64,000 bases of DNA from an uncultured bacterium (lineage in GTDB: Bacteria; Verrucomicrobiota; Verrucomicrobiia; CAIQCK01): the NCBI GenBank assembly GCA_903870275.1, contig CAIQCK010000101.1:13141-77140 (forward strand), written 5' to 3'. Made by a program: the position numbers and the translations under genes. Within the stretch, counting starts at the first letter, position 1. Each line of letters starts with the position of its first letter. The notes under the pieces were generated by a model, which ran no database searches, was not told the origin of the DNA, and was given only the letters and a program-made list of their open reading frames with translations. Shown here piece after piece: positions 15,332-31,250 of this stretch.

Positions 15332-15408
15332 TGGTGGGCGCGCTCGGATTCGAACCGAGGACCCAGTGATTAAGAGTCACTTGCTCTAGCCAGCTGAGCT
15401 ACGCGCCC
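15332..15408 (-). tRNA. tRNA-Lys (anticodon CUU)
   Basis: Reverse complement GGGCGCGTAGCTCAGCTGGCTAGAGCAAGTGACTCTTAATCACTGGGTCCTCGGTTCGAATCCGAGCGCGCCCACCA gives a canonical cloverleaf with anticodon loop CTCTTAA (CTT) and encoded CCA. A T8 run follows immediately 3'. Confidence 0.9.
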
Positions 15409-17135: not shown

Positions 17136-17220
17136 TGGTGGAGGGAGAAGGATTTGAACCTTCGAAGGCATAGCCACCTGATTTACAGTCAGGCCCATTT
17201 GGCCGCTTTGGTATCCCTCC
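17136..17220 (-). tRNA. tRNA-Tyr (anticodon GUA)
   Basis: Reverse complement GGAGGGATACCAAAGCGGCCAAATGGGCCTGACTGTAAATCAGG...TTCGAAGGTTCAAATCCTTCTCCCTCCACCA. Anticodon loop CTGTAAA (GTA), long variable arm, encoded CCA. A T7 run follows immediately 3'. Confidence 0.9.
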
Positions 17221-21993: not shown

Positions 21994-22003
21994 TGAGGCG
22001 GGG

Positions 22004-22046
22004 ATTGGAGATTGGTAATTGGTGGCCGGTAATTGATTGTTGGTGA
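22004..22046. repeat. (NNATTGG)x6 heptamer tandem array
   Basis: ggattgg agattgg taattgg tggccgg taattga ttgttgg, immediately after the stop of the 21487..21993 gene. Confidence 0.6.
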
Positions 22047-22109
22047 AAGGCGGAACGCCATCTGTCAGGTCTGGCCGGATAAAACGTGACGGACCGCATC
22101 CTCGACCGT

Positions 22110-22808
22110 TCAAAAAGCCTCCCATGGCGGTTCGTAATGAATAAACTCGTGGTGTTCGCCAATCGTCGCCTCCCAGAAAGGGCACCACATCAAGTCAATT
22201 ATGAACGCCGGAGGCACTAACACCTGCGCTGGATATCCCCACCATTCTCTGTAGTCACGACGCATGTGCGTGCCTGGAATAACCTGCAAGTGGATGTTCT
22301 TGCCCATTATGACGTAAGGAATTGTCTGGCCCATTGCGAAAGTGGATGCGTTCTTCCTGAAATTCGGTGGAATCTTTTCGAGCGCCATATTCTCACGGCT
22401 GATGCCATCGGGGACAACCTCCCAGACTTTGTTTCCACAACAATCAGCCGATATCTGGATGGTGGGCGGATATTGCTGTCCCGGATTCGTCAGACGCGGG
22501 TGAGAGTCATACTCCCGCCACGTTTTCGTTCTATAGATAGAGCTTTCAACACCAGAGCGGGAAGCAATTACGTATTTGTTACACCTGAAGATCGGGTTTC
22601 CATTTCCAGCAGCGATCCCAAACCTGGCTTTCACGGCAATTGCTCCATCCTCTGCCACAATCACCGAATCTTTGGCCAGAATGTCGCTATTAAGATATTC
22701 CATGCGTTTGCCCGCGACTGTCACCGCCTTCGTTGTCATGCACCCGCTAGTGATGACGGACAACAGCACCAGACCAGCGATCCTCAGCCAAGCCTTGTTC
22801 ATTTTCAT
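22110..22808 (-). CDS. hypothetical lipoprotein
   Basis: Signal peptide with lipobox-like LLSVITSGC at ATG 22808 (MKMNKAWL). About 230 aa, no family recognised. The ORF extends to 22877. Confidence 0.5.
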   Translation of the reverse strand: MKMNKAWLRIAGLVLLSVITSGCMTTKAVTVAGKRMEYLNSDILAKDSVIVAEDGAIAVKARFGIAAGNGNPIFRCNKYVIASRSGVESSIYRTKTWREYDSHPRLTNPGQQYPPTIQISADCCGNKVWEVVPDGISRENMALEKIPPNFRKNASTFAMGQTIPYVIMGKNIHLQVIPGTHMRRDYREWWGYPAQVLVPPAFIIDLMWCPFWEATIGEHHEFIHYEPPWEAF

Positions 22809-23061
22809 GGGTGTTGCTCCTGATGGTTCCACAGGGAAAGGCGCGGCTAAGCCCGGCGTATAACGGAGAATTTCCAAAGTCCATCGTGATCCGTTTCCGG
22901 TGATAAGACCGGACCGCCGGGCCGGCCAAAATAACGACTCGGCGCGCCCAGCGGTCGCACCCTACCCGTGTGCCAGGCGTCCCGCCTGTCCTACTCTTTC
23001 CTCTGGAATTTGCCGCCGGTTCGGAGACATATTGTCCCCGTCATCGAAAGGAAACCCGATA

Positions 23062-24510
23062 ATGAAGAAACGCGGCTCCAACCATCCGACGATTTCCAAC
23101 TCGTCCGTCCATCCGTCCGCTTCGCCGCCTTCCCCTGCTCTCTCGCGCCGGCGGTTTCTCGGCTTCGCGGCGGCGGCGTGGGCCACAACCAACATCGTGC
23201 CTGCGCGCGTACTCGGCGCAGACGGCCAGACACCGCCAAGCGGGCGGCTCAGTCTCGCGGGCGTCGGCGTCGGCGGCGTCGGGTTTCCCCAACTTCAGGA
23301 TTTTGAGAAGGCCGGCTTCAATATCGTCGCGCTCTGCGACGTGGACGACGTGTATGCCAAAAAAGCCTTCGACAAATGGCCGCAGGCGCGCCGTTACCGC
23401 GATTACCGCGAGATGCTTCGCGCCGAGGGCGACAAGATTGACGCGGTCCACGTCGCCACGCCCGACCACACGCACGCGCTGGTCACGCTCGCCGTGCTGC
23501 GGCGCGGCAAGCACGTCTGTTGTGTGAAGCCGTTGACCCGCACCATCCACGAGAGCCGCGTGATCGTGGAGGCGGCGCGCAAGGCCGGCGTAGCCACGCA
23601 GGTCACCGCGCAACCCAATACCAGCGAGACCGCCTGCCGCACGTGCGAATTGATCCAGGCCGGCGCCATCGGCGCGGTGCGCGAAGTTCACGTCTGGTCC
23701 AACCGCCCGCTCTGGCCGCAAGGCATGCAGCGCCCGCCGGGCGAGGACGCCGTGCCGGACACGTTCGATTGGAAAATGTGGCTCGGCCCCGCGCCGCAGC
23801 GGCCGTTCAAGGACAAGTGGCCCGACGGCAGCTACGCGCTCGATCAGGTGAAGGCGGCGGGCAAGAAAGGGCCGTCGGTCAAGGCGGTGTATCATCCGTG
23901 GAATTTTCGCGGCTGGTGGGATTTCGGCACCGGCGCGCTCGGCGACATGGGCTGCCATTACCTGAACACGCCGTTCCGCGCGTTGAAGCTCGCCCATCCG
24001 ACGCGCGTGCAGGCCAGTGCAACGCAGGTGTTCGCCGAGACGGCGCCACTAGCAGCGGTGGTCACGTATGATTTCCCGGCGCGCGGCGAAATGCCGCCGC
24101 TGCGCCTGATCTGGTATGACGGCGGTTTGAAACCGCCCGCGCTGGGCGATTTCGAAGGCCGCCCGCCCGACGGCGGCGCGCTCTACATCGGCGACGAGGG
24201 CAAGATGCTCGGCACGACGGTGCTGCCCGGCTCGCGCGCGACGAAGTTCGAGAGCCTGCCCAAGACCCTGCCGCGGCGCGGCGGGACGTGGGCGGAGTGG
24301 TTTGAAGCCTGCAAAGGCGGCGAACCCGCGGGTTGCAACTTCAACTGGGCCGGGCCGCTCACGGAAACGGTGTTGCTCGGCAACATCGCCATCCGCACCG
24401 GCAAGCGGCTGGAGTGGGACGCCGCGCAGATGAAATTCACCAACGACGAGCCGGCGAACGCTCTCGTGAAGGAATCCTACCAAAACGGCTGGTCGCTCGA
24501 CCCGGCGTGA
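23062..24510 (+). CDS. Tat-exported Gfo/Idh/MocA family oxidoreductase
   Basis: Twin-arginine motif RRRFLGFAAAAWA. NAD(P) Rossmann GVGGVG. Gfo/Idh/MocA motifs (..DAVHVATPDHTH.., ..GKHVCCVKP..) and a C-terminal alpha/beta domain. AAAGGAAA RBS before ATG 23062; the ORF extends back to 22900. Confidence 0.8.
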   Translation: MKKRGSNHPTISNSSVHPSASPPSPALSRRRFLGFAAAAWATTNIVPARVLGADGQTPPSGRLSLAGVGVGGVGFPQLQDFEKAGFNIVALCDVDDVYAKKAFDKWPQARRYRDYREMLRAEGDKIDAVHVATPDHTHALVTLAVLRRGKHVCCVKPLTRTIHESRVIVEAARKAGVATQVTAQPNTSETACRTCELIQAGAIGAVREVHVWSNRPLWPQGMQRPPGEDAVPDTFDWKMWLGPAPQRPFKDKWPDGSYALDQVKAAGKKGPSVKAVYHPWNFRGWWDFGTGALGDMGCHYLNTPFRALKLAHPTRVQASATQVFAETAPLAAVVTYDFPARGEMPPLRLIWYDGGLKPPALGDFEGRPPDGGALYIGDEGKMLGTTVLPGSRATKFESLPKTLPRRGGTWAEWFEACKGGEPAGCNFNWAGPLTETVLLGNIAIRTGKRLEWDAAQMKFTNDEPANALVKESYQNGWSLDPA

Positions 24511-24755
24511 CGCCCGCGGGCGAGTCGTGGGTCTCTTTCTAATTGTGGCGGCGGTAGCCGACCACGAAAGGCAGGGTCGGACCGCAGGGCCGGCCGAAAG
24601 CCCCGGCAAAGAGGAAGCGATGCCGATTTGAGAACGTTGCGGCGCGCCCAGCGGTCGCGCCCTACCAGTCTACCCCAACAGGGTGGGAATCACTCAGCCC
24701 GGCGTCGTCTGGCCCTCCGGCCTGCGCCTTTTTTGAAAATAATAGACAATTTCAC

Positions 24756-24783
24756 TTGACATGATAGCATAAATCTCTATATT
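24756..24783 (+). promoter_or_regulatory. near-consensus sigma70 promoter (TTGACA-16-TATATT) with AT-rich UP-like tract
   Basis: TTGACA 24756-24761, 16-nt spacer, TATATT 24778-24783. Preceded by ttttttgaaaataatagacaatttcac. Conspicuously AT-rich in a 62% GC genome. Fires toward the structured leader and the 25426 Gfo/Idh/MocA gene. Confidence 0.5.
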
Positions 24784-25425
24784 CTGTCCCCAGCGTCGAA
24801 ACGGACCGCTGGGCCAACGCCCGCCGTCCGGCGCGGCAAAAGACCATCGGAGAACAAAGAGACAGCCATGAGGACAGGGAATACCAAAACATTGGCGCCG
24901 AAACAGATCGAGGCCAACCGCCACAACGCCCTCCAATCCACCGGCCCGAGGACGCCGGCGGGGCCGCTGGAGCAGACGCTGGTGGAGCATACCGTTGCCA
25001 TGCTGAGGCGGTCGCCACGGGGCGGAAATCATATATGCTCGTTTCCCAAAACGAACCCATATGACGGCGGCTTCGAAAACCGGAAAACCTCGTTTTCCAA
25101 TTGGAATCGGCGTTTTTCGATTCCGGGGAGTGTGAAAAACAACAACCTTTTTTACGAAACGAACCCAAATGAATGGGACCCATTTTTGCCGCACATCGGG
25201 CGACAATCCGGCTTGCGGCCATCGCGCGCCCGGCGCCGCTTGCCACAAGTCAGATGGTCAGCCCCGAAAGCTCCGACAGGAGTCGCGAGTCCATCCCAGA
25301 CTTTCGGGGTCAGAAACCGCCGCCACAGCCAATGCCCCCGCGTCCGCTGATACCTCAGTAGTTCTCGACCGCCCAACGCACGCCGTGGTATGTCTGGAGC
25401 CGAAGCGGTTTCGCATCGGACCATC

Positions 25426-26718
25426 ATGAAACAACTCTCACGGCGCGATTTTGTGAAGGGCGCGGGCGCGGCGCTCGGTTTTCCTTTTCTCGTTCCATCC
25501 TCCGCGCTCGGTCTGGGCGGCGCGATCGCGCCCAGCGAACGCATCACAATGGGCTTCATCGGCGTCGGCGGCCAGGGCGGCGGCCATCTGCTCGGCGGCG
25601 CGTGGACCTACATCCCCGGCGGTTACAGCGCGCGGCCCGACGTGCAGGTGCTCGCCGTTTGTGACGTGCGGCGCGAACGCCGCGAGCGCGCGGTGCAGCG
25701 CGTGAACGAAAACTACGCGCAAACGCCCGGGCGCAGCGGCGGCAAGCCGTGCGAGGGGTATGTGGATTTCCGCCAGGTGCTCGAGCGCGACGACATTGAC
25801 GCCGTGCTCATCGCCACACCGGCGCACTGGCACGCCATCATGGCGATCATGGCGGCGGAGGCGGGCAAGGACATCTATTGCGAGAAGCCGTCGGCGTGCA
25901 CCGTTCACGAGGCGCAGGCGATGGCCGCGGCGGTGCGGCGCTACGGCCGCGTCTATCAAGCCGGCACGCAGCAGCGCAGCGAATACGGAGGCAAGTTCCG
26001 CCGGGCGTGCGAGTTTGTCCGCAGCGGGCGCATCGGGCGGTTGAAAGAGATTTACGCCTACCGCGACGGCGGCGCGATCCGATGGCCGGTGCGGTTCGGC
26101 GCAGGCCGGCCGGTGCCGGACGGGCTGGACTGGGAACTCTACCTCGGTCCCGCGCCGTGGCTCCCCTATGACGGCAACGTTGGCTCGCACCGGTTCGACA
26201 TCGGCGAACTCAACTGGGGCCAGCACCACTACGACATCGTGCAGTGGGCCGCCAACGCCGACGAGACCGGCCCGGTGGAGTTGTTCATGGACGGAGATCG
26301 CACCGCCTATCGCTACGCCAGCGGCGTGACGGTGTTCGGCAAACCATACCCCGGCGAAAAAGTCGGCGGCAACGGTGGCGCGTGCTTCGTCGGCACGAAC
26401 GGACGCATCGCCGTGGACCGCGACAATCTCGTCTCCGATCCACCCGACATCGTGCGCGAACCGCTCCGACCCGACGAGACGCATCTCTATCACTGCGATA
26501 GCCACTCCGGCAATTTTCTGGAATGCGTCCGTACCCGCCAGCGCACGATCTGCCACGAAGGCGTCGCGCACCGCTCATCGAGCGCGCTGCTGCTCGGCGG
26601 CGTCGAGAAACAGTTGCAGCGGCCGTTGAAGTGGGATCCGCAACGCGAGCAGTTCGTCGGCGACGACGAGGCCAACCGCCTGCTCTCCATCGCCCAGCGC
26701 CCGCCGTGGCACATCTAA
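25426..26718 (+). CDS. Tat-exported Gfo/Idh/MocA family oxidoreductase (paralog)
   Basis: Tat motif SRRDFVKGAGAALG. GFIGVGGQGG Rossmann. ..DAVLIATPAHWH.. and ..GKDIYCEKP... ATG at 25426; the ORF extends back to 25390. Confidence 0.8.
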   Translation: MKQLSRRDFVKGAGAALGFPFLVPSSALGLGGAIAPSERITMGFIGVGGQGGGHLLGGAWTYIPGGYSARPDVQVLAVCDVRRERRERAVQRVNENYAQTPGRSGGKPCEGYVDFRQVLERDDIDAVLIATPAHWHAIMAIMAAEAGKDIYCEKPSACTVHEAQAMAAAVRRYGRVYQAGTQQRSEYGGKFRRACEFVRSGRIGRLKEIYAYRDGGAIRWPVRFGAGRPVPDGLDWELYLGPAPWLPYDGNVGSHRFDIGELNWGQHHYDIVQWAANADETGPVELFMDGDRTAYRYASGVTVFGKPYPGEKVGGNGGACFVGTNGRIAVDRDNLVSDPPDIVREPLRPDETHLYHCDSHSGNFLECVRTRQRTICHEGVAHRSSSALLLGGVEKQLQRPLKWDPQREQFVGDDEANRLLSIAQRPPWHI

Positions 26719-26728
26719 GGAACCGACG

Positions 26729-29173
26729 ATGCGACTCATTTTCATTGCCATCATTTTCGCCGCCCTGCTCTCGCCGTTGCGCGCCGCCGATTCGGACGAG
26801 GAACAATCCATCGCCGTCCTGCAATCGGACGCCACCTTGCAGCAGAAGGACGCCGCGTGCGCGCAACTCAAGCACATCGGCACCGTCCGCTCTGTGCCCG
26901 CGCTGGCCGCGCTGCTCGCCGACGAACAACTCTCCCACTCCGCCCGTTACGCGCTCGAATCCATGCCGCTGCCCGAAGCGGGCCGCGCGTTGATCGGCGC
27001 GCTGGACAAGACCGCCGGCCTGACCCGGGTTGGCATCATCACTTCGCTCGGCTACCGCCGCGAACTCGCTGCACTGCCGGCGCTGGCGAAACTGGTTTCC
27101 GACAACGACCCGCAGATCGCCTCGGCGGCAGCGGTGGCGCTGGGAAAAATCGGCGGTGCGGAGGCGGCGAACACCCTGAAGGCCGCCCGCGCCGGAGCAC
27201 CCGCCCCCGTCCAACCCTCCATCGCGGACGGCCTGCTCCGTTGCGCCGCGCATTTCCTCAAAAAGGGCGCAATGCATTCTCCGCACGCGCTCCCCGCCGA
27301 TGAGGACACCGCGGCGGCATCGGAAATCTACCAATCGCTTCTGCACTCCAAAGAGCCTCGCCTGCGCACCGCCGCCGCTCACGGCCTGATTGTCTCCAGC
27401 GGCAAGGACGCGGCCGCAACGGCGCAGAAGATGTTGCTGGGAGACGATCCCTTCTGCCGGATGGCCGCTTTGCAGTTGATCGCCCGGATTCCCGGAGAGG
27501 TCGCAACGAAACTTTTCGCCGAGTCGCTGCCCTCGCTCCCCGCCGATATCCAAGTCGCGGTGATTGAAGCCCTGCGACAACGCGGCGACGCGGCGGCCGT
27601 TCCCGCGCTCGTCCCGGCCACGAAGGCTTCGTCGGATGCGGTGCGCATTGCCGCCCTGCGCGCGCTGGGCGCGATTGGCGACGCTTCGGTCATTGCGCCG
27701 CTAGCCGAAACAGCCGCCGGCACAAAGGGCGGCGAGCAGGAAGCCGCGCGTGACGCGCTCGATCTGCTTCGCGGCAAGGGCATCTCCAAGGCCATGCTGG
27801 CCCATCTGACCAAGGCGGCGCCGGAAGTTCAGACAGAACTGATTCTGTCGTTGGGCCGGCGCAAAGAAACCTCCGCCGTTCCGACGTTGCTGAAGCTTGC
27901 CGGGTCTTCCAGCGAATCGCAGCGCGCCGCCTCGCTTCAGTCGCTCGCGCTGACGGCGGATGAAGGCGTGGTGAACGATCTCGTCGGGCTTCTGGTGAAG
28001 GCCGGCACCGATGGCGAACGCGACGCGATTGAGAAAACCCTGCTGACCATCTGCGTCCGCAGCAAACATAGCGAGGTCTGCGCCGCGTCCGTGCTGAAGT
28101 CCGAGAAAACCGCTGCCGTTCCGGTGCGTTGCGCCTTGCTCAGAGTTCTCGGTCGCGTCGCCGGCAACGAATCGCTCCAGGAACTTCGCACCGCCACCCG
28201 CGACAGCGATCCCGCCATTCAAGACGCCGCCATCCGCTCGCTCGCCGATGCCGGACGGCTCGACGCCATGCCGGACCTGCTCGCGCTGGCGAAAGACGCG
28301 CCCACCCTGCCCCATCGCGTCCTCGCGCTCCGCGGTTACTGGCACGCCGTCTCGCTCGCCGACAAATGCGCCGCCGCCGAGCGCCTGAAAATGTGCGAGA
28401 CGGGCCTGGCGGCTTCACCGCGCCCCGACGAAAAGCGGCTCGGTCTCACGGAACTGGCGAAAATCCCGGACGTTGGTGCGTTCAAGCTGGCCGAGCCGTT
28501 TCTCGCCGACGCCGCCGTACGCGCCGAAGCCGCGTCCGCCATCGTGCAGATCGCGCTAGAAACCTCCGGCGCGCACCGCAGCGCCGCCAAAGCCGAACTG
28601 ACCCATCTTCTTGCCACCGCGCCCGACGACGCTACCCGCAAAGCTGCGGAAGCGGCGCTGGATCAACTTGAGCCGGCCGCCGGCTACATCACCGCGTGGC
28701 AGGTGGCCGGTCCCTACGCGCAAGAGGGCAAGAACTACCGCGCTCTTTTCGATATCCTCTTCCCGCCGGAAACGCCCGACGCGGCGCAGGTGAAATGGCG
28801 CACGTTGCCGGCCGGCACCAGCGCCGGCACACCGTGGCTGCTCGACCTGCTCAAGTTCCTCGGCGGCCAACAATGCGTGGCCTACGCGCGCACCAACGTC
28901 TACTCCGACAAACCACAAGCCGCGCGCCTCGACCTCGGCTCCGACGACGGCGTGAAAGTCTGGCTGAACGGCGAGGTGATCCACGCCAACAACACCGCGC
29001 GTCCCCTGAAGCCGGGATCGGACAAGGTCGCCATCAAGCTCAAGCAAGGCTGGAACGCGCTCCTGTTGAAAATCACCCAGAACAACCTGGGCTGGGAATT
29101 TTCCGCCCGCATCGTCAAACCCGACGGCACGCCGCTCTTCGGCCTCCGCGCCGACACCTCTCCGGTTCATTAA
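26729..29173 (+). CDS. HEAT/PBS-lyase repeat protein with C-terminal beta-sandwich (lectin/PA14-like) domain, secreted
   Basis: Signal peptide MRLIFIAIIFAALLSPLRA. About 600 aa of HEAT-like repeats (..ALG.IG..A...L..LL.D.D..VR..A..AL..). C-terminal about 160-aa beta-sandwich (..VKVWLNGEVIH..). Starts 11 nt after the Gfo/Idh/MocA stop, an operon arrangement common in PVC genomes. Confidence 0.7.
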   Translation: MRLIFIAIIFAALLSPLRAADSDEEQSIAVLQSDATLQQKDAACAQLKHIGTVRSVPALAALLADEQLSHSARYALESMPLPEAGRALIGALDKTAGLTRVGIITSLGYRRELAALPALAKLVSDNDPQIASAAAVALGKIGGAEAANTLKAARAGAPAPVQPSIADGLLRCAAHFLKKGAMHSPHALPADEDTAAASEIYQSLLHSKEPRLRTAAAHGLIVSSGKDAAATAQKMLLGDDPFCRMAALQLIARIPGEVATKLFAESLPSLPADIQVAVIEALRQRGDAAAVPALVPATKASSDAVRIAALRALGAIGDASVIAPLAETAAGTKGGEQEAARDALDLLRGKGISKAMLAHLTKAAPEVQTELILSLGRRKETSAVPTLLKLAGSSSESQRAASLQSLALTADEGVVNDLVGLLVKAGTDGERDAIEKTLLTICVRSKHSEVCAASVLKSEKTAAVPVRCALLRVLGRVAGNESLQELRTATRDSDPAIQDAAIRSLADAGRLDAMPDLLALAKDAPTLPHRVLALRGYWHAVSLADKCAAAERLKMCETGLAASPRPDEKRLGLTELAKIPDVGAFKLAEPFLADAAVRAEAASAIVQIALETSGAHRSAAKAELTHLLATAPDDATRKAAEAALDQLEPAAGYITAWQVAGPYAQEGKNYRALFDILFPPETPDAAQVKWRTLPAGTSAGTPWLLDLLKFLGGQQCVAYARTNVYSDKPQAARLDLGSDDGVKVWLNGEVIHANNTARPLKPGSDKVAIKLKQGWNALLLKITQNNLGWEFSARIVKPDGTPLFGLRADTSPVH

Positions 29174-29559: not shown

Positions 29560-31250
29560 TGAATGATGGCGAGTTGAAGTTTCCTGGTTTTTGGTTATGC
29601 CGGTCACGCCCGCCGAACTCGCTCTCGGTTTGACCAACGTGGGTCTTTACAGTTGTTAGCCTCGTCGAACTTAGGTTCGACAAGCTCCTTCCCCCACAGC
29701 TTGCCGCCGGCACGCTGTGGATTGTTCCGAAAATGGCGATTGCGGTCCCGAAAGTAGCGGTTAATAGCCTCCTTGCACTCTTCGACTGACTGGTAATCAC
29801 TGTTGTGAAGTATCGCCTTCGCCATGCCACTGAAAACGGATTCGATCACATTCAGAAACTGTGCGCCCGCAGGAAGCGGGGCCAGTCTAACGAATGGCCC
29901 ATGCAGATCTCGGCGAAACTCGCGGCTGTTTACGAAATGAACCCTCTCAAGAAACTGATGCGAAGCGTGCCAAGACGCAGCGTCCCAAGAGAAATAGATG
30001 AACTTTGCCGCACGATACTTCCGCACAAGCAGATTCAGCAACTTGATCATCTCGGTTGTGTCCTTCTTTCGTGAGTAGAAATGCGTGGCTTGATTACGTG
30101 ATAACTCGAGTGCAGCCGTGACGATCAAACTGCCTTTATTCTTTTGGAGTTGTGGGACCACTCGCACTTGCCCTCTGGGGACGAATGACTTTCCGCCAGT
30201 CATCTTGACAGCAAATGGTCCGAACTCATCCACGGAGAAGAATCTGTCTTTTGTTCCCAAGTGTGAGAGTATGCGCGTAATCTTCCGAACTTTTTCAGAG
30301 TATTGCGGATCCGCGCTAGTCAGCACTTTCTTTGCCTTTCGCATCCGCCAACCTGCGTTCCTGATTATTCTGCTGATGCAGGCTTTCCCAACATGAAGCC
30401 CCTGTTTGCCCATGATGCACTTGATGTCCTGCAATCGCCAAGTCGTCCGGTTAACTCCAAAGGCGCGTGGCGGTGCATGGAGTATCGAGAAGACGGCCTG
30501 TTTGTATTCAGGGACATCGCACTTCGCGTATGCACGGCTAACAGGGTTTACGGCAGCTTCGCACCCTTTGGCAGCAAGTTGGGATATGTGAGCATCAACA
30601 GCGGAATGACCGAGGTGCAGGAATCTCGAAATGACCGAGACCGGAATTCCTTTCAGATGAGCAAGAATCGAAACCGCACGGTTCCTGAAACGCAAGCCCT
30701 TGTCTCTAATGCAACTCAGGATAAGACCGATCTCGCGCGGCGTCAGATGCTTCGCAAACAACAGAGCAAGTTGCTCGACAGTGAAGCTACCCTGAAGCAA
30801 GGAGAGCATCCACTCGCGACTTTTCTGCTCCCGGTCTGCGCGCGGGTTTACAGCTCTAATTGGTCGTTTACAATCTGGATAGATGCCATCTTCGTCACCC
30901 CGCCTTCGCATTCCTGACGCGCTTTCTAATGAACGTATCGACTGCTCCGCAAGCGACTGTGCATCGCTTGGGCATCGGCGTAGAGGCCGGAAACTTGCTG
31001 CTGCTTTGTCGAGCAACGCCTTCTTCCACCTGTAGAACACGTTCTGATGAATCCCGTAGCCTAAGCACAATAAGCGAACAGGAATCTTCTCCTCAAAGTG
31101 CATTCGGAGGAGCCTGACCTTTTCATCGGCGTTGAAGTGCCTTCGTTTTCTCGGCATGCGTGCTTAACATTGTTTCATTTCGCAGGCTGCGCCAGTGAAT
31201 TGTCAGTGGCGAGCCGGGACTCGAAACCTTCTCCCGCTAACCGCATCCAC
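29560..31250 (-). mobile_element. IS630-family insertion sequence (boundaries approximate)
   Basis: Single 517-aa transposase ORF with noticeably lower GC than its flanks. Terminal inverted repeats could not be resolved by eye, so the ends are estimated from the ORF ends plus typical 50-100 bp flanks. Confidence 0.55.
29604..31157 (-). CDS. IS630/Tc1-mariner family transposase (HTH + DDE_3)
   Basis: N-terminal HTH region (RRHFNADEKVRLLRMH...). DDE_3-like core (..FSVDEFG.., ..FSWDAASWH.., ..LPAGAQFLNVIESVF.. corresponding to the LPPYSPDLNPIE motif). Confidence 0.75.
   Translation of the reverse strand: MPRKRRHFNADEKVRLLRMHFEEKIPVRLLCLGYGIHQNVFYRWKKALLDKAAASFRPLRRCPSDAQSLAEQSIRSLESASGMRRRGDEDGIYPDCKRPIRAVNPRADREQKSREWMLSLLQGSFTVEQLALLFAKHLTPREIGLILSCIRDKGLRFRNRAVSILAHLKGIPVSVISRFLHLGHSAVDAHISQLAAKGCEAAVNPVSRAYAKCDVPEYKQAVFSILHAPPRAFGVNRTTWRLQDIKCIMGKQGLHVGKACISRIIRNAGWRMRKAKKVLTSADPQYSEKVRKITRILSHLGTKDRFFSVDEFGPFAVKMTGGKSFVPRGQVRVVPQLQKNKGSLIVTAALELSRNQATHFYSRKKDTTEMIKLLNLLVRKYRAAKFIYFSWDAASWHASHQFLERVHFVNSREFRRDLHGPFVRLAPLPAGAQFLNVIESVFSGMAKAILHNSDYQSVEECKEAINRYFRDRNRHFRNNPQRAGGKLWGKELVEPKFDEANNCKDPRWSNRERVRRA

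Follow-up and report, generated by a model that had tools for sequence, protein, structure and literature searches.

Among the described systems closest to the intergenic region analysed here are pseudogenes formed by internal deletion, and riboswitches or other long 5′ leaders. The region is the 915-nt gap between gfo1 (23062–24510) and gfo2 (25426–26718), which both encode Gfo/Idh/MocA oxidoreductases with twin-arginine translocation (TAT)-like signals, in a 64,000-nt stretch of DNA from an uncultured bacterium of the Verrucomicrobiota (contig CAIQCK010000101.1; hereafter the window, GC content ~61%). Like a pseudogene formed by internal deletion, the spacer is homologous to an intact paralogue (protein P0041, locus L091), carries two deletions with microhomology at their junctions, and has a displaced stop codon, a chimeric read-through open reading frame (ORF) and a frame change in a close relative (L001). 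It differs from such pseudogenes in that the promoter, the 5′ untranslated region (5′UTR) and the 3′ flank are nearly intact in two independent relics, and in that its divergence from L001 lies below the neutral proxy; the non-coding ends may still be used. With riboswitches and long 5′ leaders the window shares a long potential 5′UTR (~640 nt) and local hairpins 3′ of a strong promoter, but it differs from them in having no family match, conserved structure, covariation, or conservation 5′ of orthologous genes.

Our analysis indicates, with a probability of about 0.82, that the gfo1–gfo2 spacer is a lineage-specific patchwork consisting of a decayed paralogue from an uncharacterised family of ~300-aa all-helical proteins, with dispersed repeats resembling repetitive extragenic palindromes (REP-like repeats) on both sides. 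An earlier interpretation made from the letters of the window (the sequence-only reading) had taken the spacer for a structured leader, small RNA or riboswitch of the Gfo/Idh/MocA genes. The features on which it drew, from a near-consensus promoter and the stem behind it to a small ORF and an AT-rich island with hairpins, occur together because a single decayed gene unit handed them down as its promoter, 5′UTR, N-terminus and 3′ flank.

An internally deleted copy of a family gene unit

Positions 24729–25243 of the window constitute an internally deleted copy of a self-contained family gene unit, whose closest intact member is P0041 (299 aa), encoded at L091 1732–2631. A BLASTN comparison of the window with L091 yielded three collinear pieces that span window 24736–25233 at 75–87% identity:

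Window 24736–24962, matching L091 1600–1826: promoter, 5′UTR and codons 1–32
Window 24953–25000, matching L091 1958–2005: codons ~76–92 (87.5% identity)
Window 24998–25233, matching L091 2623–2856: last three codons, stop and 3′ flank

Projected onto the window, the unit and the ORF that crosses it comprise the following features:

24729–24783, + strand: AT-rich tract followed by the sigma70-like promoter of the ancestral unit (−35 at 24756–24761, −10 at 24778–24783)
24789–24867, + strand: ancestral 5′UTR, 83% identical to L091 1653–1731
24868–24962, + strand: relic piece 1, start codon and codons 1–32 (MRTGNTKTLAPKQIEANRHNALQSTGPRTPAG), matching L091 1732–1826 and 84% identical in amino acids to P0041 residues 1–32
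24963–25000, + strand: relic piece 2, codons from the middle of the gene (PLEQTLVEHTVA; P0041 residues ~79–90)
25002–25004, + strand: ancestral stop TGA, no longer in the frame of the 160-aa ORF (window 'cca tgc tga ggcggtcgcc', L091 'cca tgt tga ggcggtcgcc')
25005–25243, + strand: conserved 3′ flank of the family gene, made of the AT-rich island and a GC-rich tail (overlapping the third BLASTN piece)
24868–25350, + strand: 160-aa ORF (P0001), a chimeric read-through of the relic pieces, the 3′ flank and a repeat

The window copy has kept the promoter, the 5′UTR, codons 1–32, 16 mid-gene codons, the old stop and the 3′ flank. Residues ~33–78 and ~92–296 of the P0041 body are deleted, with only the short PLEQTLVEHTVA segment left. 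Inspection of the junction sequences places the deletion between pieces 1 and 2 across a GCCGGNGGG microhomology; the second deletion, which corresponds to the loss of L091 2006–2622, has the microhomology CCA at its junction. The N-terminal motif ANRxNAxxSTGPxTxxG, by which family membership is recognised, is present in the window copy, and the full-length body, extending from the mid block PVGPLEExLVxxIxxxxWRxRR to the C-terminal LRYExxLxRQxxRxxxxLERxQ, is absent. On sequence grounds, the window copy is a relic and not a functional family member. The ancestral unit measured ~1.3 kb and carried its own sigma70 promoter, a structured 5′UTR, the gene, and a ~300-nt 3′ flank with the AT-rich island. 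The alignment shows two microhomology-mediated internal deletions, which took out ~750 nt of coding sequence and brought the start codon into one reading frame with an open part of the 3′ flank, generating the 160-aa ORF.

Because the unit lost this coding sequence and its start was left in frame with the 3′ flank, the 160-aa ORF is, as judged from its sequence, a read-through artefact and not a conserved protein. It has no Pfam or NCBIfam match and no viral relatives, and a search of 5.8 billion proteins returned only the ORF itself and P0002, a 91% identical protein from L001. The L001 locus belongs to a close relative whose gfo2 is 97% identical to that of the window at the protein level, and its DNA is homologous to the window from ~24715 onward only, the left 200 nt being unrelated. 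A 25-nt deletion in the window relative to L001, at ~25244, leaves P0001 and P0002 ending in different frames, and the frame of the ORF meets stops within the island and 3′UTR in L091 and L098, in agreement with the doubt already cast by the sequence-only reading on the long ORF as a genuine protein gene. We consider it very unlikely that the locus encodes a functional small protein, either the 160-aa ORF or a mini-protein that keeps the most conserved N-terminal motif of the family. The start codon, the ribosome-binding site (RBS) and the 32-residue N-terminal motif are intact, and three of the five substitutions that separate the window from L001 over 136 nt are synonymous; beyond codon ~50, however, the changes are mostly non-synonymous, ~250 residues are missing (including the invariant C-terminal LRYETxLERQ block), the C-terminal frame is not shared by the two relatives, and the ORF runs through a 3′UTR that is closed in the same frame elsewhere. 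The second relic described below, moreover, lacks the original ATG and three residues of the motif.

This second relic (L102 870–1481, P0014) is an independently decayed copy with other deletion end points, which keeps the equivalents of L091 1708–1984 and 2606–2929. Its original ATG is lost and three N-terminal motif residues are deleted, with the promoter end and the 3′ flank kept. It lies directly 5′ of a co-oriented ThuA gene (1621–2355) of sugar metabolism and comes from sample ERZ27313066, which also contains the window sequence (as L004). Two independently deleted copies in which promoter end and 3′ flank alike survive would also be expected of a derivative resembling a miniature inverted-repeat transposable element (MITE), in which the ends of a mobile gene unit suffice for mobilisation in trans and the island repeats act as recombination or binding sites. 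The homology between paralogous units at unrelated loci has sharp boundaries, the island contains direct repeats at fixed spacing, and distant family genes lie beside tyrosine recombinases in Rhodobacterales plasmids or, at locus L086, beside ERF/HNH/YqaJ-type recombination genes (ORF translations inspected). Against mobility stand the lack of terminal inverted repeats, of a second copy within the 64-kb window and of a transposase-like fold, together with the synteny of P0041 and P0051 across samples, which indicates vertical inheritance; the sole long-range inverted repeat is made by REP-like copies lacking in L001. We regard a MITE-like origin as decidedly unlikely.

Several observations weigh against a simple decayed paralogue. 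Both decayed copies have retained both ends, unlike the outcome predicted from random deletion alone. Between the window and L001, the coding remnants and island diverge by 4.2% (13/308), compared with 11.4% (27/236) at the fourfold sites of gfo2 (Fisher p = 0.0016) and 7.7–9.7% in the rest of the spacer (p = 0.023). Constraint may thus still act on the 'relic', and the low divergence would fit either retained function or gene conversion with paralogues. Finally, the insertion boundaries are set solely by where homology between paralogous units ends.

The protein family and its AT-rich island

The family was recovered with residues 1–56 of the 160-aa ORF as query in an exhaustive phmmer search. 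At a cutoff of E ≤ 1e-3, the search returned 27 further proteins (E 2.7e-7 to 1e-3), all aligned to residues ~1–40 and sharing the N-terminal motif KQIEANRxNAxxSTGPRTPxGKxxSxxNAxKHGL, which bears out the resemblance to small hypothetical proteins proposed in the sequence-only reading. A metagenome scan added at least five more family loci, and a profile search collected at least 205 proteins, typically of ~300 aa and all without Pfam domains; the invariant or near-invariant columns of the family alignment (A5) include the mid and C-terminal blocks given above. Pfam, NCBIfam, PHROGs, PADLOC and PDB contain no match to the family, which has no structural relative and neither a transposase-like nor a recognisable DNA-binding fold. 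P0041 and P0051 occupy the same syntenic position (334-aa hypothetical gene / coaD) in different samples, and we take this as evidence of vertical inheritance. A comparison of their genes (L091 1732–2631 and L098 2477–3376) gives 29, 31 and 41 differences at codon positions 1, 2 and 3, respectively, suggesting from sequence that the protein evolves fast and is weakly constrained or diversifying, though a few motifs are invariant across phyla.

Distant members occur in other settings. Among the matches listed from a plasmid scan, three were distant family members, all annotated as hypothetical. In the Rhodobacterales plasmids NZ_CP018573.1 (L101 2124–2789) and NZ_CP028919.1 (L103 470–1375), the family gene overlaps a hypothetical gene on its 5′ side, similar to the middle and C-terminal part of the family, and a divergent tyrosine recombinase lies ~0.4–0.7 kb 5′ of the overlapping pair. 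In a soil metagenome (L086 11–2054), the family gene stands immediately 3′ of genes for a YqaJ-like exonuclease and an ERF-like protein with a C-terminal HNH motif (translations inspected). A phage origin was considered and rejected: the double motif described below is absent from IMG/VR, where at least 30 single-motif matches were judged close to chance and none lay beside a family gene. In literature searches, the peptide and DNA motifs matched nothing but unrelated primers and epitopes.

The 3′ flank of the window copy carries an AT-rich island (GC 0.45–0.47 at 25050–25199) in which the hairpins and the repeated motif pointed out by the sequence-only reading were all found. Its parts are:

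25049–25064: motif A, first copy of AAACGAACCCAWATG
25082–25098: GGAAA..TTTCC hairpin (GGAAAAC/GTTTTCC)
25103–25124: second hairpin (GGAATCG/CGATTCC)
25146–25172: T-run and motif B, the second copy of AAACGAACCCAWATG occupying 25157–25172

In L091 the island follows immediately 3′ of the stop codon and likewise contains two motif copies, 108 nt apart. The pair AAAC[GA]AA[CG]CCA[AT]ATG recurs 3′ of the stop at a spacing of exactly 108 nt in the window, L001, L091, L092, L093, L095 and L096, and at 109 nt in L098; the proteins of these double-motif units are only ~45–55% identical. Between the motifs, solely AAAAC…GGAAA-N5-7-TTTCC-AAT-GGAA and a T-run are conserved. The motif core measures ~16–22 nt, (T)nACGAAACGAA[C/G]CCA[A/T][A/T]TG, and is found nine times across 644 kb of unrelated loci; family genes nearly always have it close by. 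It is double and 3′ of the gene in Verrucomicrobia-type units, and single and 20–160 nt past the stop in distant members and Rhodobacterales plasmids. Specifically, a single copy lies 20–28 nt 3′ of the stop in L097, L099 and L103, 160 nt 3′ of it in L101, inside the read-through tail in L100, and ~25 nt 5′ of the ATG in L086–L088, soil-metagenome members whose taxon is guessed from gene context only. The copy that follows the family gene in L103 reads TTTTTACGAAACGAACCCATTTG, and the AAACGAAGCCAA motif of L086 sits between the HNH gene and the ATG of the family gene.

A coding island was examined and rejected. Translations of the motif are ~15-fold enriched in the final 70 residues of family ORFs, in two different frames. 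Six-frame translation of nine homologues revealed no consistently open frame and nucleotides conserved in every frame, so the non-coding nature proposed for the island by the sequence-only reading stands; on inspection of the sequences, GAA, CCA and AAT, the codons that do not vary, end in A or T against a GC-rich background, and the single variable position of the motif swaps an amino acid (N/K). Long family ORFs that read through the island (P0033–P0043; also P0040 and P0044) all end in GGSL(T/P/K)(T/K)…. At the C-termini of P0040 and P0044 (L095 ~2190–2214 and L096 ~1600–1631), five conserved residues are encoded by different synonymous codons, GGA GGT TCT TTG ACA versus GGC GGA AGC CTG ACC. 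These synonymous differences point to conservation at the protein level, and in that subgroup the island-containing extension may be translated.

The island appears to be a nucleotide-level cis element of the gene family that is defined by sequence and spacing and not by a folded RNA. RNAalifold found zero pairs in eight island homologues, with neither consensus structure nor covariation, and single-sequence fold z-scores were −0.77, −1.97, +1.55 and +0.64 on the + strand and ranged from −3.57 to +1.30 on the − strand. The island likewise falls short of an intrinsic terminator, which requires a GC-rich stem and a T-run: the T-run before motif B is preceded by an A/T stem only. An independent small RNA, or a regulatory RNA derived from the 3′UTR of the family gene and still expressed from the relic, is an unlikely reading. 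The sequence and length of the island are conserved across diverged units, the divergence between window and L001 is below neutral, and an intact promoter lies upstream. Against it, secondary structure and covariation are not conserved, fold z-scores are not consistently negative on either strand, the consensus scan found no terminator, and in distant members the motif is single and stands before or after the gene, an arrangement more in keeping with a binding site than with a folded RNA.

Because the two direct repeats lie about ten helical turns apart, the sequence suggests a putative protein-binding site, more likely than a folded RNA. The island resembles iteron- or operator-like repeats in that two direct repeats of 16 nt, nearly identical to each other, stand in an AT-rich patch with a constant spacing of 108 bp (~10 helical turns) and are always linked to one protein family. 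It differs from them in that replication or partition genes are absent and no DNA-binding fold is recognisable in the family protein that would bind them. In the window, the island would have been carried along as part of the relic. We advance only tentatively, and hold to be rather doubtful, the wider possibility that the island is the Planctomycetes–Verrucomicrobia–Chlamydiae (PVC) version of an undescribed cis element that accompanies an undescribed protein family across phyla, with protein and motif forming a putative protein/binding-site module and decayed copies being kept because their ends (promoter and motif pair) act on the downstream host gene. Such a module would be, for example, autoregulatory, recombinational or selfish. 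The pairing of motif and family itself appears undescribed.

Relic promoter and a possible leader of gfo2

The promoter of the unit, TTGACA-16-TATATT at 24756–24783, matches the sigma70 consensus at 11 of 12 positions and is one of four clustered promoter-like sites, where 0.6 are expected; sigma70-like sites within the spacer are confined to 24743–24790. It lies where GC content dips to 0.47 (24700–24799), as the sequence-only reading had it. That reading also correctly placed a stem directly behind the promoter: CCCAGCG (24789–24795) pairs with CGCTGGG (24807–24813), followed by a second GC stem (24819–24837) and the RBS GGAGAA (24849–24854). The 5′UTR folds with −27.8 kcal/mol (z = −1.7). 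A TTGACA-N16/17-TATATT promoter and a GC-stem 5′UTR just 5′ of the ATG are common to the window, L001 and L091, and occur in weaker form in L092, L093 and L102. Window and L001 share identical −35 and −10 hexamers, and three substitutions fall in the 16-nt spacer between them.

The proposal that the region is a structured leader of the Gfo/Idh/MocA genes fared less well. In 80 gfo2 orthologue loci (from GTDB genomes, mostly of Verrucomicrobiota and Planctomycetota, and at most 76% identical in amino acids), blastn and nhmmer found no homologue of the block upstream of gfo2; the sequence-only reading had itself named such a lack of conservation among the grounds for its rejection. The distance from the end of the upstream ORF to gfo2 in the 12 closest orthologous loci is roughly 0–650 nt, mostly <250 nt, and gfo1 does not lie 5′ of gfo2 in the closest loci. 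An Rfam 15 search of window 22000–27000 at E ≤ 1 returned nothing but a spurious 18.9-bit viral hairpin inside gfo2, a scan of the whole window at gathering thresholds returned two tRNAs only, and a search of 11 related loci gave no match for the block. Over its entire 636 nt, the putative transcript has a fold only modestly more stable than those of shuffled sequences (z = −2.2).

It is therefore highly improbable that the region acts as a long, structured cis-regulatory leader or riboswitch-like RNA specific to the Gfo/Idh/MocA genes, with a 27-mer shared by both gfo upstream regions as a mark of their co-regulation. A strong promoter does stand 640 nt 5′ of gfo2 with no terminator-like site in between, local hairpins exist, and the 27-mer is found 5′ of both genes. 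However, besides the missing homologues, the short spacers, the empty Rfam searches and the island without consensus structure (z-scores from +1.55 to −1.97), the 27-mer is part of a dispersed repeat, and every element of the supposed leader was inherited from an unrelated gene unit.

The relic promoter would still work, given that both hexamers have been preserved around a variable spacer. It would now feed transcription into gfo2 and the HEAT-repeat gene behind it through a ~640-nt leader, because no terminator-like site follows the relic promoter, whereas one follows gfo1. The relic has possibly been exapted as the gfo2 promoter, and any long gfo2 leader may be a by-product of the relic promoter firing, that is, exaptation and not a conserved regulatory RNA. 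In double-motif units with a listed downstream neighbour, that gene is co-oriented with the family gene in every case. The arrangement is like promoter donation by decayed or inserted elements, such as the outward-reading promoters of insertion sequences (IS), in that a near-consensus promoter lies in foreign or paralogous DNA, and the host gene 3′ of it has the same orientation and is separated from it by no terminator-like site. It differs in that the donor is not a known IS and the predicted promoter serves the family gene itself in intact units.

Dispersed repeats, neighbouring genes and implications

The relic is bordered by repeats and genes that do not belong to the unit:

24512–24532, + strand: terminator-like hairpin and T-rich tail immediately 3′ of the gfo1 stop (consensus scan only)
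24544–24666, + strand: REP-like repeat copy of ~80–120 nt (…CGAAAGGCAGGGNCGGACC…GCAGGGCCGGCCGAAA…GCGGCGCGCCCRGCGGTCGNGCCCTRCC), the 27-mer being its 3′ end
25262–25309, strand unspecified: palindromic REP-like element CCCCGAAAG…CTTTCGGGG with the stem CCGAAAG
25426–26718, + strand: gfo2 (PF01408 and PF19051, TAT-like signal), the next gene 3′ of the relic

The 27-mer CGGCGCGCCCAGCGGTCGCRCCCTACC occurs at 22940–22966 and 24640–24666, two matches compared with none in 100 shuffles. Its presence upstream of both gfo genes had been noticed in the sequence-only reading, which placed the second copy slightly off, at 24638–24665. The larger repeat aligns with window ~22905–22966 and with L092 3934–4027, the latter within the 3′ flank of another family gene at an unrelated locus, and is missing upstream of gfo2 in L001. 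The CCGAAAG stem was also present as proposed, with a small shift in coordinates, and the CCCCGAAAG…CTTTCGGGG element recurs in opposite orientation at ~L092 4345–4393 (read by eye). On this sequence evidence, the 27-mer repeat and the CCGAAAG stem are REP-like dispersed repeats and not Gfo-specific operators. A half-copy of the same element at 24564–24582 accounts for a weak long-range inverted repeat, 24544–24582 / 25289–25327 (79% over 39 nt). This pair was rejected as element ends, being formed by REP-like copies outside the unit with the left arm absent in L001.

The repeats share with REP and other small palindromic repeats, such as Acido-Lenti-1 (RF01687), their short, GC-rich, partly palindromic and intergenic character and their occurrence in either orientation at unrelated loci. 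They differ in having no RF01687 or other Rfam match in the window and a low copy number, two or three in the sequences examined. RF01687 itself scores above its gathering threshold in L093 (2738–2783, − strand, 47.4 bits) and L098 (2167–2212, − strand, 46.7 bits), a few hundred nt 5′ of intact family genes, where the matches resemble REP-type palindromes.

The terminator-like hairpin after gfo1 suggests that gfo1 and gfo2 are not simply co-transcribed; the consensus scan gave zero terminator-like sites across 24533–25457. A HEAT-repeat gene follows gfo2 in the window, and the majority of the closest orthologous loci have this gfo2–HEAT pair too. Against NCBIfam NF058561 (BT_2158-family glycoside 3-dehydrogenase, cutoff 750 bits), gfo1 scores 430 bits and gfo2 116 bits, and both may encode periplasmic glycoside 3-dehydrogenase-like enzymes. 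A 517-aa ORF located 3′ of the HEAT-repeat gene (window 29604–31157, − strand) carries a DDE_3 (PF13358) transposase domain in the precomputed annotation of an identical contig and is probably an IS630-type insertion. The two tRNA genes lie at window 15335–15408 and 17139–17220, both on the − strand. Locus L004 (contig k141_569938) shows 100% identity with the window from ~23915 on and contains a different Gfo paralogue before that point; the switch (L004 1–165 compared with window 23751–23915) falls at a conserved FGTGALGDMGCHY motif and is probably an assembly chimera, a join between paralogues, or possibly a recombination between them. L004, with its gfo1 apparently only 81% identical, was dropped as boundary evidence, being most likely an assembly join and uninformative on boundaries.

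At this locus, the analysis removes a false lead, since the gfo1–gfo2 spacer holds no riboswitch-like Gfo leader, and the small ORF at 24868–25350 should not carry a protein annotation. The locus itself is ordinary, a pseudogene relic, and the pairing of family and motif is the more interesting by-product. The relic nevertheless offers a concrete case in which a decayed gene may leave a strong promoter that rewires a neighbouring sugar-oxidoreductase operon. Beyond the locus, a large, phylum-spanning family of ~300-aa helical proteins, consistently accompanied by a short conserved motif absent from Rfam and from the literature searched, provides a start for assigning function to a common 'hypothetical protein'.

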